The translations under genes and the position numbers were made by a program. Below are positions 1,612-9,822 of a stretch of 29,279 nt of DNA, piece by piece; within the stretch, counting starts at the first letter, position 1; each line of letters begins with the position of its first letter. The notes beneath the pieces are model-generated. The model was given only the letters and a program-made list of their open reading frames with translations. It ran no database searches and was not told where the DNA came from. Origin of the DNA: a virus (taxonomy: Duplodnaviria; Heunggongvirae; Uroviricota; Caudoviricetes); the IMG/VR virus record IMGVR_UViG_2917398303_000005, positions 1 through 29,279 of that record. One strand, written 5' to 3'.

Positions 1612-2016
1612 TTACTGAATGTTCTTTGTCGTGGCTAAGTGGGTATTAGAGCTAATAGTCACTTTGGATTGTTCCGGTTGCTCTTGACCAGCTTTATCGC
1701 AAGTAGCTCTCGGATTCTCAAGCGCATACCCCATGAAACTAAATTTATTGAGGATTTGAACCGCTTTAGTAGTTTTTAGGTATGCCGTATTTTCTTTATG
1801 TAGCCATACTGGATAGCAAACACCATATACAGCAGTATCATAAATTTCAGGTGTGACCGTTGGCGTATCCAGAACAACAGTAATCACACCCTTACTATCT
1901 TTTATCGATAAAGGCTGCATATCATTCAACGACTTTTTAAGCACAGACAAATTGGATGGCTGAGCATGTACAGCAAAAGAAGTGAGTAACACAAGAGCAA
2001 AAATTGAACGTTTCAT
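1612..2016 (-). CDS. small secreted protein (signal peptide), moron between int and cI
   Basis: 134-aa ORF with N-terminal MKRSIFALVLLTSFAVHAQP signal peptide. AT-rich, and tightly packed between cI (stop 2025) and the next ORF. Confidence 0.6.
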   Translation of the reverse strand: MKRSIFALVLLTSFAVHAQPSNLSVLKKSLNDMQPLSIKDSKGVITVVLDTPTVTPEIYDTAVYGVCYPVWLHKENTAYLKTTKAVQILNKFSFMGYALENPRATCDKAGQEQPEQSKVTISSNTHLATTKNIQ

Positions 2017-2024
2017 AAGTTCCC

Positions 2025-2867
2025 TTATATATGTTTTTCCAAAGTAAAAATTACAGCACCAAAAGGGGTAATGTCTGAAATATTACATTCAAACTCAGCA
2101 GATTTATTTGATAGCCTGACTTTTCCGCCGGGTAGTCGAACTACATCAAAAACATCAAAAGCGCCATCGATATCAATTAACCAGCGGCCATTACCTATAT
2201 TCGAAGCAGAACAGTCGACAAGCCAGGAAGCACCAGCACCGTCAACAAAAATCAACTCCTCAGAGTTAGACGGAATCATTGAAGGGTCAGGTTGCCAACT
2301 TCCTGCATCTTTGAGCTCACCAGACTCAAGGCGAGATTTTTTTATTGTCAGAACGTCGGGATAGCAGACCTCTTTGCTTTGTCTCATTTTCCCCTTGCCG
2401 GTAGCTAACCACTCCAGCGATACGCCAGTATCAAGGGCGCACGTAACAACAACATCACCGGGGAAGAAATCTCTCCTGACCCAAGTACTGATAGTACCAG
2501 AGGAAATATCAAGCAAATCACCAAGCTCTTTTTGCATTGTAAAACCATACGCATCAAGGATACGCCTCAATACAGGTTTTCCACCGCTCGTTAAAATCTC
2601 GTCATAAAGTAACTTCCCTTTCAACGCCGGTGCATCTTGCAAATTCAAACTGGAGATTGTTCCAGTCAGCAACCAATTTAGATCGGCACCAGTATCTAAT
2701 GAGCACTGAATTATCGCTTTTCCGGGAAAGCTATTCCGCTGAACCCACGTACTGACACTATTTGACGGGACGCCAAGCACCTCAGCCAAAGCCTTTTGCG
2801 TGCTGACACCATAGGCCGAACTTATCCGCTCAATCACATCTTGCGTATTCAAATCTTCATCATTCAT
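2025..2867 (-). CDS. cI: CI-type immunity repressor with two tandem phage-CI HTH domains and a possible S24-like C-terminal domain
   Basis: 280-aa ORF. Residues about 8-70 and 98-160 are clear paralogous repeats (…STWVQRNSFPG…DTGADLNWLLTG / …STWVRRDFFPG…DTGVSLEWLATG), resembling the phage CI repressor HTH domain. It is divergent from the rightward early operon and next to int. Confidence 0.8.
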   Translation of the reverse strand: MNDEDLNTQDVIERISSAYGVSTQKALAEVLGVPSNSVSTWVQRNSFPGKAIIQCSLDTGADLNWLLTGTISSLNLQDAPALKGKLLYDEILTSGGKPVLRRILDAYGFTMQKELGDLLDISSGTISTWVRRDFFPGDVVVTCALDTGVSLEWLATGKGKMRQSKEVCYPDVLTIKKSRLESGELKDAGSWQPDPSMIPSNSEELIFVDGAGASWLVDCSASNIGNGRWLIDIDGAFDVFDVVRLPGGKVRLSNKSAEFECNISDITPFGAVIFTLEKHI

Positions 2868-2980
2868 TTATCAATCACTCAAAATCGATTTACACGAACT
2901 CATTTTCGATCTAAAGTGGCATTCATCGACCAAGATGCACACCACTGCACCACATTTCAAACAACAGGAGATAATGCGAT
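2868..2980. promoter_or_regulatory. lysis-lysogeny switch region (operators and face-to-face early/lysogenic promoters expected)
   Basis: 113-bp gap between divergent cI and the cox/apl-like gene. Candidate rightward sigma70 promoter: -35 TTTACA at 2889-2894, 17-bp spacer, -10 TAAAGT at 2912-2917. Palindrome AAATCGATTT at 2882-2891. RBS AGGAG at 2966-2970. Promoter positions are eyeballed, not scored. Confidence 0.45.
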
Positions 2981-3352
2981 ATGTCAGATGCAAAATCAAT
3001 CTCGACGCATGATTCGCAAAACTCACAAAATCAAACTGTGCTGTTAGATCCGGCTCAGTTTGATGCCATCGTTACCGCTATGCTGCCAGCTCTGCAGACA
3101 ATGATCCGCTCCGCTATGTCAGACACAATGACAGTGAAAGACTTTGCCGCCACTCGCGGTGTAAGCGAGCGTCTGGTCTGGCAATGGCTTGATGAGGGAA
3201 TCCTCCTCAAAGCCCCAACTAAAGACTTTTCCAACAAGGAAGAGGCTGGAAAACGAAGCCGCACCCTCGTAAACGTGAAAGCATGGCGCGACAAACTAAC
3301 CCAGCAAGCGATTGATTGTCGCTACATCGACCACCGCATCGCTCTTAACTGA
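2981..3352 (+). CDS. Cox/Apl-like excisionase-regulator (HTH)
   Basis: 123-aa ORF with a strong RBS. First gene of the rightward early operon, with an HTH-like segment MTVKDFAATRGVSERLVWQWLDEG. Position matches 186 apl / P2 cox. An internal in-frame ATG at 3080 would give a 90-aa product closer to Apl in size. Confidence 0.6.
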   Translation: MSDAKSISTHDSQNSQNQTVLLDPAQFDAIVTAMLPALQTMIRSAMSDTMTVKDFAATRGVSERLVWQWLDEGILLKAPTKDFSNKEEAGKRSRTLVNVKAWRDKLTQQAIDCRYIDHRIALN

Positions 3353-3384
3353 ATTTGATTATGCAAGTTAGAGGGAATTTAACC

Positions 3385-3894
3385 ATGTTTGATTTTCAGA
3401 TTTCTAAACATCCTCACTATGACGAAGCGTGCCGGGCTTTTGCGCAGCGTCACAACATGGCGAAGCTGGCCGAGCGTGCGGGTATGAACGTTCAAACGTT
3501 ACGTAACAAGCTCAACCCGGAACAGCCTCACCAATTCACACCGCCTGAATTGTGGCTGCTGACTGACCTGACCGAAGACTCAACCCTCGTTGATGGCTTT
3601 CTGGCGCAGATTCATTGTCTGCCATGCGTGCCGGTTAATGAGCTGGCTAAAGAGAAATTGCAGTCTTATGTGATGCGCGCAATGAGTGAACTCGGCGAAC
3701 TGGCGAGCGGTGCGGTATCAAATGAACGTATGACCTCTGACCGCAAACACAGCATGGTTGAGAGTGTTAATGCAGGCATCCGCATGTTGTCTCTGTCGGC
3801 GCTGGCGTTACAGGCGCGTCTACAGGCTAACCCGGCAATGTCGAGCGTGGTTGATACCATGACCGGCATCGGCGCAACATTTGGTTTGGTATGA
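3385..3894 (+). CDS. cII: phage 186-type CII transcriptional activator (CP76 family)
   Basis: 169 aa from ATG 3385, with RBS GAGGGAA 8 nt upstream. Begins MFDFQISKHPHYDEACRAFAQRHNMAKLAERAGMNVQTLRNKLNPEQPHQF, which matches my recollection of 186 CII almost residue for residue. Confidence 0.8.
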   Translation: MFDFQISKHPHYDEACRAFAQRHNMAKLAERAGMNVQTLRNKLNPEQPHQFTPPELWLLTDLTEDSTLVDGFLAQIHCLPCVPVNELAKEKLQSYVMRAMSELGELASGAVSNERMTSDRKHSMVESVNAGIRMLSLSALALQARLQANPAMSSVVDTMTGIGATFGLV

Positions 3895-7784: not shown

Positions 7785-7804
7785 TACTGTATAAACATAC
7801 AGTA
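7785..7804. promoter_or_regulatory. LexA operator (SOS box) overlapping a candidate promoter
   Basis: TACTGTATAAACATACAGTA is a near-perfect match to the CTGT-N8-ACAG consensus TACTGTATATATATACAGTA. It lies about 20 bp upstream of the RBS/ATG at 7824. A -10-like TATAAA sits inside the box. Confidence 0.75.
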
Positions 7805-7823: not shown

Positions 7824-8006
7824 ATGGTTGACGAACATTTCAGCCGAACGCAGCAAAAGTGGGCTTGTGTGCAATTTATTGCCGAGGTATCTCTGATTGC
7901 AAACTGCAAGCCATCAGACTTAAAGCTCGCGCTCACTCTCATTGCAGACCTAGCAAACAGCGAGAATAACGAAACCGAAGATGATAATTTTTATAAGGCT
8001 GATTAG
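7824..8006 (+). CDS. small SOS-regulated ORF (possible Tum-like antirepressor N-terminal part)
   Basis: 60-aa ORF with RBS AGGAGGG at 7812-7818, directly downstream of the LexA box. It ends at an amber TAG (8004-8006) and is in the same frame as the next ORF. Confidence 0.55.
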   Translation: MVDEHFSRTQQKWACVQFIAEVSLIANCKPSDLKLALTLIADLANSENNETEDDNFYKAD

Positions 8007-8009
8007 ATT

Positions 8010-8240
8010 ATGAGAATCAATATCACGTTGGATAAAGAACAAAAATTAGGGCAACAGATCATTGATGCTTTTCAGAATGAAATAACACATCGAGTACAAT
8101 GCGTTTTTCCTGCAATAAAAGTTAACGTCAAGAAAGGGTCAATGACTAGTGTAGAGGTTATCGGATTCGATAAAGAAGCAGACAAAGAAACATTAAGCGG
8201 CATATTACAAGAGATTTGGGAAGACGATAGCTGGCGTTAA
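8010..8240 (+). CDS. DinI-family protein (DinI-like / Tum C-terminal-like)
   Basis: 76 aa: MRINITLDKEQKLGQQIIDAFQNEITHRVQCVFP…ETLSGILQEIWEDDSWR. This parallels E. coli DinI (MRIEVTIAK…ISEILQETWESADDW) as I recall it. SOS-controlled through the upstream LexA box. Confidence 0.8.
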   Translation: MRINITLDKEQKLGQQIIDAFQNEITHRVQCVFPAIKVNVKKGSMTSVEVIGFDKEADKETLSGILQEIWEDDSWR

Positions 8241-8258: not shown

Positions 8259-8315
8259 CGCAAAAACTAGCTTTTTGCGTCGACGGGGTTGAGTAACGAG
8301 CCCACGAGGCTTTAG
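8259..8315. repeat. repeat unit copy 1: 8-bp-stem hairpin plus conserved 34-mer
   Basis: Hairpin cgcaaaaa/ctagc/tttttgcg at 8259-8279, followed by GACGGGGTTGAGTAACGAGCCCACGAGGCTTTAG at 8282-8315. Matches copy 2 at 8686-8720 at roughly 85% identity by eye. Confidence 0.55.
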
Positions 8316-8439
8316 TCCGGCCTTTCAAAATTTCTCAATGTGCTATTGATGACACGCCAGTGATGAATGAGGCATGACCTGAGAGGGTTTTATAGTGGCG
8401 TTTTGACGGCACTGATTAAAATTCATTGAGGGTGATAAT

Positions 8440-8649
8440 ATGCATCGACTACCAGGTGAAATACCGCAGCACCAGACCAGAAATATTAAGTTAATGGCTA
8501 TCGTTCATCGCCTGCAGCAGATAATGGTCAATGAGAATTTGACACCCGCCGAGCTGGTCGGGTGCGCCGAAATAGTCAGGGATAATTGCGGCAAGCTGGA
8601 TAGCATCAGCAGACCGACAAAATACGCACCTCCACCACGTCGACGATAG
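8440..8649 (+). CDS. hypothetical small protein bracketed by the two repeat units
   Basis: 69-aa ORF with RBS GAGGGTG about 7 nt before ATG 8440. Arg/Pro-rich C-terminus. No recognisable motif. Confidence 0.4.
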   Translation: MHRLPGEIPQHQTRNIKLMAIVHRLQQIMVNENLTPAELVGCAEIVRDNCGKLDSISRPTKYAPPPRRR

Positions 8650-8659
8650 CAAACGTCGT

Positions 8660-8720
8660 CAGCGCTGAAACTCGCTTTCAGTGCTGACGGGGTTGAACAA
8701 CGAGCCCCGCGAGGCGTTAG
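8660..8720. repeat. repeat unit copy 2: 11-bp-stem hairpin plus conserved 35-mer
   Basis: Hairpin cagcgctgaaa/ctcgc/tttcagtgctg at 8660-8686, followed by GACGGGGTTGAACAACGAGCCCCGCGAGGCGTTAG at 8686-8720. It lies between convergent orf69 and orf143 and overlaps the orf143 stop. Confidence 0.55.
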
Positions 8721-9148
8721 CTGGTTACCAGATTGACACCGAGGGTAAGCAGGTTTGTCACCGCACCGGCAATCACTCCCGGCGTCCCGTCTTTCACTGC
8801 ACTGATAATCTTATCGCCCATTGTTTCATTACCGCCGAGCGCCTCGGGCTTTTTGTTAAGCACGGCGAGTGCTTTCTCGGTCAGGCGCACATCATAAAAA
8901 TAGGTCTGGTGGTCTGTTCCGTACTGGATGTAGCCGTTTTCACTGAGAAAAGTGAATGTACCCTCAACCACACTACGCAACTGATTCAGTGCGTTCATTT
9001 CTGGTGAGTTAAGTTGTTCAAAGTAGTCATCAGGTAGCGCGGCGTTAAATTTTTCGTAAGTAATGACCTGTGGCACCGGGAAGTTATCCCATAACACCGC
9101 AAAAACTTCCGCCGTCTGCTGGTTAAATAATTCGAGGTTTTTGGACAT
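8717..9148 (-). CDS. hypothetical accessory protein, reverse-oriented cargo gene at the P2 tin/old position
   Basis: 143-aa ORF with RBS AAGGGA about 8 nt upstream on the minus strand. Soluble-looking N-terminal ~110 aa plus a Gly-rich hydrophobic C-terminal tail (GTPGVIAGAVTNLLTLGVNLV). Opposite in orientation to the flanking genes. Confidence 0.6.
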   Translation of the reverse strand: MSKNLELFNQQTAEVFAVLWDNFPVPQVITYEKFNAALPDDYFEQLNSPEMNALNQLRSVVEGTFTFLSENGYIQYGTDHQTYFYDVRLTEKALAVLNKKPEALGGNETMGDKIISAVKDGTPGVIAGAVTNLLTLGVNLVTS

Positions 9149-9206
9149 GCATAATTCCCTTTCATCGATAGACCCGTTTGCCGATTGGGCAAAAAAGCTG
9201 ACTGTA

Positions 9207-9338
9207 ATGGCATCGAATAACGACCTGAGTTCTCGCGAGGTGGAAAGCTACACCGCAAAAATGGTCGACCAAGCCAGTAAAGATGAGCTTACGGTCGTTA
9301 TAAAACACCTGTTAAACCACATCAGAATGCACAAATAA
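9207..9338 (+). CDS. possible small ORF divergent from orf143
   Basis: In-frame ATGs at 9147 and 9207 within the 9063-9338 ORF; no convincing RBS. The 9147 start would overlap the orf143 start codon back to back. Protein from 9207: MASNNDLSSREVESYTAKMVDQASKDELTVVIKHLLNHIRMHK. Confidence 0.3.
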   Translation: MASNNDLSSREVESYTAKMVDQASKDELTVVIKHLLNHIRMHK

Positions 9339-9664
9339 AAGGATCTATATCAATATGTTATCTCTCGTTTATGAAAATCCGTGGACGACGATTTTTCTGC
9401 TGATTGTTGCCAGTATGTGCCTCAATAGTGTTATTGGCGCATTGCGCGGCCAGTAATCGCGACAAAACCAGACCCAAACCGGCACCCTGAATGCCGGTTT
9501 TTTTATGCCATTTTCCCGCGATTTCCCCGTTTTTTAGCCGTGCATGCAACAGGTGCATGGTTTTGCATGCGTCGGGGTTGCCCGTTCTGGTCGTGCGCCG
9601 CCAGTGCTGGCGCGGATTCAGAGTGGTCATGCAACTGCATTAAAACCGACCCATAAAGCGGGCA

Positions 9665-9683
9665 GGCGTGGCGGGGAAAGCAT
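9665..9683. other. cos site, 19-nt cohesive-end sequence (186-type)
   Basis: GGCGTGGCGGGGAAAGCAT matches my recollection of the phage 186 cohesive end (P2: GGCGAGGCGGGGAAAGCAC). It is where cos is expected, between the accessory locus and portal gene Q. Confidence 0.55.
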
Positions 9684-9822
9684 TGCGCGCCAGCGGTGGT
9701 GCGTAATAATAAAAATTATCCTCTGAGCGCGTCGTGATGGCGCTGTAGTGGATGCTGTCGGCTCGTTGGTGGTCTGGTGTGGCCGTGCGCGTGTGGTGCG
9801 TCTGAGGAGTGATGATAGCGGG

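Follow-up and report, generated by a model that had tools for sequence, protein, structure and literature searches.

The immunity repressor CI (280 residues) encoded in IMG/VR virus record IMGVR_UViG_2917398303_000005 (positions 1 to 29,279; this whole stretch of 29,279 nucleotides is called here the window) is securely identified as a PSP3-type repressor of the 186 family, not autocleavable and controlled by Tum, in which an additional helix-turn-helix (HTH) domain precedes what is otherwise a 186-type protein. The best explanation, given a probability of about 0.6, is that of a 186-type CI with an extra HTH, induced by Tum, whose two heads have different jobs. A more precise division of labour, in which the outer domain (HTH1) would serve the variable operators of the early lytic promoter pR and the inner domain (HTH2) the constant flanking operators, stands at about even odds from the sequence comparisons. 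Equally balanced is the fuller picture of a ‘two-key’ repressor, in which HTH1 would co-evolve with pR, a frozen HTH2 would hold the looping operators (one of them within linker-coding DNA), a single antirepressor, TumA, would induce many immunities, and the architecture would have more than one origin among 186-type CIs. What appears to be new is the near-invariance of HTH2 set against the covariation of HTH1 with pR, the constant palindrome at the positions of the 186 flanking operators FL and FR, and the putative use of this palindrome as pR operator in single-HTH relatives.

Domain organization of CI

Pfam scanning of the whole protein detects PF07022 (Phage_CI_repr) in two stretches (expectation value E 1.2e-53) and PF16452 (Phage_CI_C) at residues 175-272 (E 2e-20). 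The same domains are recovered when parts of CI are scanned alone, namely PF07022 at residues 10-69 within residues 1-80 (E 1.2e-24, 86.8 bits for a cutoff of 22), PF07022 at residues 99-162 within residues 91-164 (E 8.8e-29, far above the 22-bit cutoff) and PF16452 within residues 165-280 (E 2.7e-21). HTH1 and HTH2 align without gaps over 59 positions, 29 of them identical (49%; E 5e-23), and are therefore true paralogues and not low-complexity look-alikes. The tandem of paralogous domains of about 60 residues that a sequence-only reading of this DNA had described is thus confirmed, and its alternative of a single HTH with an apparent repeat is contradicted by the two separate PF07022 matches and their paralogous alignment.

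Residues 98-273 match nearly all of 186 CI (residues 9-182 of structure 2fjr; E 1.2e-22), so that the inner HTH together with the C-terminal domain (CTD) corresponds to a complete 186 CI and HTH1 (approximately residues 1-80) is the addition. An AlphaFold monomer model, built on 33 sequences (mean predicted local distance difference test score 77; predicted template modelling score, pTM, 0.40), comprises three domains with disordered linkers at residues 72-83 and 164-170.

The two heads differ sharply in their conservation. Among the best 120 clusters at 90% identity, all of two-HTH form, 267-287 residues long and annotated ‘phage repressor protein CI’, HTH2 is nearly invariant and its recognition helix S-S-G-T-I-S-T-W-V/I-R-R is conserved in 100%, while HTH1 is variable, chiefly in helices 2 and 3. 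HTH2 also keeps the hallmarks that HTH1 and 186 CI have in common (Q112, S127, W129 and R132). For 48 loci and phages, synonymous differences (proportion pS) are at saturation in every domain, at about 0.75 (0.76 in HTH1 and 0.74 in HTH2); the proportion of non-synonymous differences (pN) is lowest in HTH2 (0.11), against 0.26 in HTH1 and 0.34 in the CTD. Since synonymous sites are saturated while pN is low, HTH2 is held by selection and not by recent ancestry.

Covariation of HTH1 with the pR operators

In five phages compared, the 90 nucleotides of the cI–apl intergenic region proximal to apl are identical and the part proximal to cI falls into three types. When 128 loci are grouped by the sequence of the HTH1 helix, a conserved sequence specific to each HTH1 type lies between the -10 and -35 hexamers of pR, often as a perfect palindrome (ATCGCAAATGCGAT, TCGCAAAATGCGA, TCACAAATGTG, ATGCCGCATTATGCGGCAT and ATCCATATGGAT). 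Because HTH2 is the same across all pR types, HTH1 is the likely reader of the pR operators.

In the window, the 13-mer ACTCAwwwTCGAT occurs exactly twice, at 2877 and 2898, 21 bp apart, and the second copy (s2) is the counterpart of the palindrome ATCG-N6-CGAT in related immunity types. TCGA cores lie at 2885, 2906 and 2926, with spacings of 21 and 20 bp; this candidate spacing matches the two-turn phasing of the three operators at 186 pR (PMC3675496). Beyond pR, the window contains no distal copies of the 13-mer in excess of chance.

A further direct repeat, TGCAC-N5-TGCAC (2936-2950), lies between pR and the presumed pL, and a related form, TGCA-N6-GTGCAT, is kept even in the most divergent loci (L040 and L048). 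It was considered as a target of HTH2 and rejected, such repeats being judged more likely candidate sites for the protein encoded at the apl position. By analogy, a weak candidate for pL may be TTGATT-17-CATTAT (2999-2971, minus strand).

A constant palindrome at the flanking positions

A second class of site does not follow the immunity types. The motif CTTGCNNNNTCAAA occurs exactly three times in 29 kb, always within 2636-3367, and the pattern CTTGC-N4-TCAAA has three perfect matches in the window (2636-2649, 2840-2853 and 3354-3367), about 0.06 being expected from base counts for a pattern that was derived after seeing the data. The distal FL and FR operators of 186 lie about 300 bp on either side of pR. 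In the window, the FL-like and FR-like palindromes lie 262 and 456 bp from s2, the former distance being comparable to that of 186 FL, and the FR-like palindrome occupies the gene boundary at which the 186 record annotates FR. Another candidate for FR, the 9-mer CATCGACCA (2923-2931 and 3324-3332), was set aside, as it does not differ between immunity types and falls within conserved apl-like coding sequence.

When the core YTTG-N6-CAAR is counted with at most one mismatch in 119 unique loci, an FL-like copy is found in 70 and an FR-like copy in 73, across 12 HTH1 types, the background being 0.014 per locus in each 15-nt bin. Codon usage supports a role of the FL-like copy as DNA. Where the linker peptide reads GE(L/F)AxA (71 unique loci), GCA encodes the first Ala every time (71/71) and the second Ala in 59/71, against 26% of Ala codons overall in those cI genes, and the linker Leu is CTT in 47/48. 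Such fixed codon choice marks the FL-like copy as a DNA element for which protein conservation does not account; the window retains the motif despite a different linker peptide (SLNLQD).

The strongest argument that an HTH2-type head would read YTTGCA..TGCAAR comes from single-HTH relatives. The CIs of cluster P0131 have a recognition helix, SSGTISTWVRR, identical to that of HTH2. In 31 IMG/VR loci with a cI of this type (L130-L160), a divergent promoter TTGACA-17-TAGATT lies upstream, and its whole 17-bp spacer is AACTTGCATTTGCAAGTT or a one-base variant, a motif found essentially nowhere else in these loci. These proteins share with the window CI the helix, a PF16452-type CTD and the palindrome AACTTGCAnnTGCAAGTT; they differ in having one HTH and in that the palindrome, placed in the promoter spacer, is a putative pR operator instead of a flanking site. 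The P0142-type loci, which retain only the left half of the palindrome (TTTGCA), lend weak support at best, and the single-HTH group P0135 has no close relatives in IMG/VR. As to the L130-L160 elements themselves, their cI genes lie at the very end of IMG/VR contigs of mostly about 13-17 kb, beside a divergent gene of 91 codons and a Cys-rich, 73-residue open reading frame (ORF) with CxxC motifs (zinc-finger-like), and they may be small prophage-like or satellite elements.

Association with the TumA antirepressor

The LexA-controlled, Tum-like module announced by the sequence-only reading is present in the window as a LexA box (7787-7802) followed by tumA and the DinI-like tumB (Table 1). In PSP3, the upstream half of the split tum encodes the antirepressor, according to a personal communication cited in PMC3121763. 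Homologues of TumA occur only in the 10 phage records with a two-HTH CI, and in all ten, and they are found in 62 of the 65 IMG/VR two-HTH loci with enough flanking sequence. By comparison, the EtG and Yersinia MHG phages are about 92% identical in DNA to the rest of the window, but their CI has one HTH and their Tum is fused, of 186 type; phage 186, too, has the remainder of the genome in common and combines a single-HTH CI with a fused Tum. The very same TumA sequence is found together with four or more HTH1 types, so that the part of CI on which TumA acts must be a constant one.

Proposed mechanism and alternative explanations

Under the favoured explanation, CI oligomers would repress pR through three phased operators. 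HTH1, which varies with the pR operators between immunity types, would set the immunity specificity, and HTH2 would read the constant palindrome YTTGCA-N2-4-TGCAAR. The FL-like copy within cI and the FR-like one that separates the apl-like gene from cII would mirror the flanking operators of 186, which loop onto a CI wheel of seven dimers (14-mer). Upon DNA damage, cleavage of LexA would let TumA be made, and TumA would bind CI and strip it, uncleaved, from the DNA. Since HTH2 and the CTD are constant, one conserved TumA could serve many immunity types. The sequence-only reading had suspected an unusual operator-binding geometry; the duplication does go with an unusual arrangement of operators, but not with the one imagined there.

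Several observations weigh against this explanation. The pR sites of the window are direct repeats and not palindromes, pL was not found by a scan for the sigma-70 consensus, and the AlphaFold model, with a pTM of 0.40, does not place the domains confidently relative to one another. The FL-like site is missing from the 12 loci of one immunity type, VLGVPSNSISTW, and no clear FR-like site is present in the Serratia and Rahnella loci. The locus counts also overstate independence, because the loci are phylogenetically related. Furthermore, the distances between TumA sequences correlate with those of the CTD (0.69) and HTH2 (0.62) and less with those of HTH1 (0.36), so that docking on HTH2 and docking on the CTD are not discriminated.

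In one alternative, HTH1 is the sole DNA reader, HTH2 is a protein-interaction module (for docking of TumA and/or as a spacer or dimer contact) and the palindromes are bound by another factor or are unrelated to CI. Such a reading accounts well for the invariance of the whole HTH2 surface (45/62 positions), which exceeds the need of a recognition helix, and for TumA being equally conserved and strictly co-occurring with the two-HTH CI. It is nevertheless considered unlikely. HTH2 keeps every HTH hallmark (Q112, S127, W129 and R132), single-HTH relatives must use the identical helix on DNA and have the FL/FR palindrome as promoter spacer, and codon fixation marks the FL-like site as a DNA element; besides, reading DNA and docking a protein are not exclusive roles.

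Less probable still, at about one chance in eight, is a composite operator, where both HTHs of one chain would bind adjacent half-sites at pR as an intramolecular pseudo-dimer, like a single-chain repressor. The asymmetric direct repeats of the window (ACTCA-www-TCGAT twice) would suit it, as would an ATCG core that is common to many immunity types while the other half varies. However, pR of several types holds a perfect palindrome of 12-19 bp, which fits two copies of one HTH; the ATCG core overlaps the -10 hexamer, itself a constraint, and is absent from divergent loci with the same HTH2 helix (L038 and L048); and the HTH2-type helix of single-HTH relatives is tied to YTTGCA..TGCAAR and not to ATCG.

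The C-terminal domain and the route of SOS induction

The sequence-only reading had taken the CTD for a possible S24-like Ser/Lys autoprotease, on the strength of three strings that are indeed present, PSM (195-197), ELIFVDGAG (204-212) and GGKVRL (247-252), and had proposed that RecA-dependent cleavage might then be a second route to SOS induction besides Tum. The fold stands up to examination. The CTD model superposes best on the CTD of 186 CI (2fkd; template modelling score 0.86, root mean square deviation 1.7) and also recovers, more weakly, the CTDs of LexA, lambda CI and UmuD' (Foldseek E 9e-6 to 1e-2, probability 1.0), and both candidate residues are well conserved across the CI family (S196 in 90%, K249 in 98%). 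The catalytic context does not. Peptidase_S24 (PF00717) has no Pfam match in CI even at E<=1. In a profile alignment of 85 family CTDs with LexA and UmuD, the loop G-M-S119-M-K-D-I-G of LexA corresponds to an 8-residue deletion across the CI family, and LexA K156 and UmuD K97 share one column, occupied by Phe240 in CI and Arg152 in 186, which is F or Y in 100% of the 120 clusters. The strings themselves fall on non-catalytic positions: the ‘DPSM’ motif pairs with D-P-S-L 101-104 of LexA, S196 being LexA S103, and ‘GGK249’ pairs with G162-N-K164, K249 being LexA K164. Moreover, Ala or Thr replaces S196 in about 10% of clusters. The Ala-Gly cleavage site of LexA has no positional counterpart either, A188-G189 aligning to LexA E95-G96. 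In 186 CI, which is gapless across this region and Tum-induced, the nucleophile peptide lacks its C-terminal half and there is no catalytic base, hence no canonical active site (2026 structural analysis, PMC12984324).

These alignments show the CTD as a predicted LexA-like fold without both catalytic residues, and a working autoprotease is scarcely tenable. As the catalytic Ser loop and Lys are absent, CI should not be RecA-cleavable and Tum should be the single SOS route; the proposed autocleavage route is contradicted by the deleted loop and by Phe240.

Distribution and origin of the two-HTH form

Whether the tandem HTH is ordinary depends on the level of the family considered. A PSP3-type two-HTH CI, such as that of the window, is marked by two PF07022 domains plus PF16452 in 276-294 residues. 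The 120 clusters come from Escherichia, Klebsiella, Enterobacter, Salmonella, Citrobacter, Cronobacter, Pantoea, Kosakonia and other hosts; 322 IMG/VR stretches match a two-HTH CI, and near full-length DNA matches to cI are found in 47 of 5,426 complete E. coli genomes. At 50% identity, about eight clusters of 285-294 residues, reaching down to 44% identity, are seen; most (about 70 of the top 150) have one HTH and 187-215 residues, their alignment covering only residues 92-278. Within the PSP3-type subfamily, with its hundreds of database clusters, two HTHs are thus the norm, and in the wider 186 CI family they are a minority form. The sequence-only reading had allowed that the architecture might be the ordinary form for its family, which holds for the subfamily and not for the wider family; its view of a single HTH as the typical CI form is correct for 186 CI and for most 50%-identity clusters. 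In the literature, a search for the two-HTH CI architecture returned nothing beyond a remark that PSP3 CI has ‘a longer C-terminal domain’ than 186 CI, without mention of a second HTH (PMC3448106).

Duplication of the HTH domain is recurrent in the CI family. Other long members (P0137, P0190, P0194, P0211, P0268 and P0215) have their own tandem HTHs, the copies in the first five being roughly 70% alike by eye, closer than HTH1 and HTH2. Because the HTH pairs of P0137 type are far more alike than HTH1 and HTH2, separate duplications are likely. One CI-family protein of 525 residues holds six HTH repeats. As to the origin of HTH1, its identity is 47% to HTH2 and 53-56% to some single-HTH N-terminal domains, and it may have arisen either by internal duplication or by fusion with the head of another CI. 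Descent of the inter-HTH linker from an ancestral upstream region was also considered and rejected, since no DNA similarity extends beyond the palindrome itself. A view of HTH1 as a neutral or decaying remnant of duplication, with no function of its own, has parsimony alone in its favour and is hardly credible, given that HTH1 is under purifying selection (pN/pS 0.34 with saturated pS), is retained in lineages down to 42% identity and covaries with the operators, and that the HTH was duplicated independently, and more recently, in other branches of the family.

Comparison with known repressors and implications

With 186 CI (PDB 2FJR and 2FKD), the window CI shares the PF07022 and PF16452 domains, the gene position between int and apl/cII, the S24-like fold without catalytic dyad and, as predicted here, pR operators two turns apart, sites at the FL/FR positions and SOS induction via a LexA-controlled Tum. 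It differs by the extra N-terminal HTH of about 90 residues, by flanking sites that are of another sequence class than the pR operators and constant across immunity types, by a Tum split into TumA and the DinI-like TumB, and by an Apl-position protein unrelated to Apl. PSP3 CI (AAN08403) and the CIs of SEN1, SW9, SI22, Midge, RCIP0057 and vB_EcoM-613R3 have the two-HTH architecture (67-89% identity), the same neighbours, tumA/tumB and an identical HTH2, and the window CI belongs to this PSP3 subfamily (74.5% identity to PSP3 CI and 89% to Midge CI). Midge has the same HTH1 and pR operator type as the window; with PSP3 and SW9, where both types differ, the window is presumably heteroimmune. LexA, lambda CI and UmuD have in common with the window CI the beta-rich CTD fold, a D-P-S-hydrophobic motif before the core and a G-x-K turn; the window CI differs in lacking the Ser-bearing loop, the catalytic Lys and any match to the Pfam S24 family.

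The CI switch of 186 serves as a reference for the way in which wrapping and looping of DNA make repression cooperative. A relative that apparently splits promoter recognition from flanking-site recognition would allow a direct test of how the looping operators, the immunity specificity and the control by an antirepressor can be separated from one another, and would help to explain how phages become heteroimmune without a complete rebuilding of the switch. Two descriptions are also corrected: cleavage of the window CI by RecA is not to be expected, and the extra part of PSP3 CI, published as a longer C-terminal domain, is a second HTH.

Genomic context and neighbouring genes

The prophage is a PSP3-like member of the 186 group (Eganvirus), P2-like. 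Its features are collected in Table 1.

Table 1. Features of the cI region and of the tum module in the window, in order of position
Feature	Position	Strand	Remarks
cI, 280-residue PSP3-type immunity repressor	2025..2867	-	ATG ORF; 2x PF07022 and PF16452 CTD
CTD, residues 175-272	2052..2345	-	186-CI type oligomerisation domain; S24-like fold, no Ser/Lys dyad
HTH2, residues 99-162	2382..2573	-	Position of the 186 CI N-terminal domain; nearly invariant
HTH2 recognition helix			S122-SGTISTW(V/I)RR-132
Inter-HTH linker, residues 70-98	2574..2660	-	FL-like palindrome within its coding DNA
FL-like palindrome CTTGCAAATTCAAA	2636..2649		Inside cI, codons 73-78
HTH1, residues 10-69	2661..2840	-	Extra, variable HTH; probable reader of type-specific pR operators
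Extra palindrome copy CTTGCGTATTCAAA	2840..2853		cI codons 5-10; seen only in this immunity type
pR operator s1 ACTCAAAATCGAT, putative	2877..2889		Overlaps -35
pR-like early lytic promoter TTTACA-17-TAAAGT	2889..2917	+	-35 conserved in relatives
pR operator s2 ACTCATTTTCGAT, putative	2898..2910		Between -35 and -10
Third TCGA-core site ATTCATCGACCAAG	2920..2933		At about pR +1, 20 bp from s2
apl/cox-position gene, 123 residues	2981..3352	+	First gene of the lytic operon
FR-like palindrome TTTGATTATGCAAG	3354..3367		Between apl-like stop (3350-3352) and cII ATG (3385)
cII	3385..3894	+	PF06892
LexA box CTGTATAAACATACAG, perfect	7787..7802	+	Upstream of tumA
tumA, 60-residue antirepressor homologue	7824..8006	+	PSP3 TumA, 96.7% identical
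tumB, DinI-like	8010..8240	+	PF06183

The window matches a contig of Escherichia sp. E1V33 at 99.3% DNA identity (38 mismatches in 5,367 nt), and the CI of that contig differs by one residue, V130I. Codon 130 (2478-2480) falls within the HTH2 recognition helix, and the V/I alternation is the one common polymorphism at this position across the family. Over most of its length, the window is 85-93% identical in DNA to vB_EcoM-613R3, Midge, RCIP0057, SEN1, SW9 and PSP3. The gene order is int, DUF2511, an extra ORF and cI, followed divergently by the apl-position gene, cII, fil and others, A, tumA and tumB; the placement of cI between int and the divergent early operon (apl-position gene and cII) matches that of 186-type CI repressors.

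The extra ORF (1612-2016, minus strand, 134 residues), between cI and the DUF2511 gene, has a signal-peptide-like N-terminus and no Pfam match. It looks like an inserted cargo gene (‘moron’), because DUF2511 directly follows cI in PSP3, Midge, SW9 and 613R3. Between tumB and the portal gene, the region 8300-9800 is variable, with several ORFs, and beyond tumB is not common to PSP3; a 143-residue ORF there (8717-9148, minus strand) gave no Pfam match when scanned.

The protein encoded at the apl/cox position has no Pfam match, and its PSP3 homologue was called a singleton in a 2011 paper (PMC3448106). In the Midge record, the homologue is named ‘transcriptional repressor Cox’, and an HHpred match to a DNA-binding protein is listed. 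Inside the apl-like gene lies an inverted repeat, ATCAAACTGTGC / GCTCAGTTTGAT, with 12-nt arms (3030-3041 and 3053-3064) that are 92% complementary and 11 nt apart.

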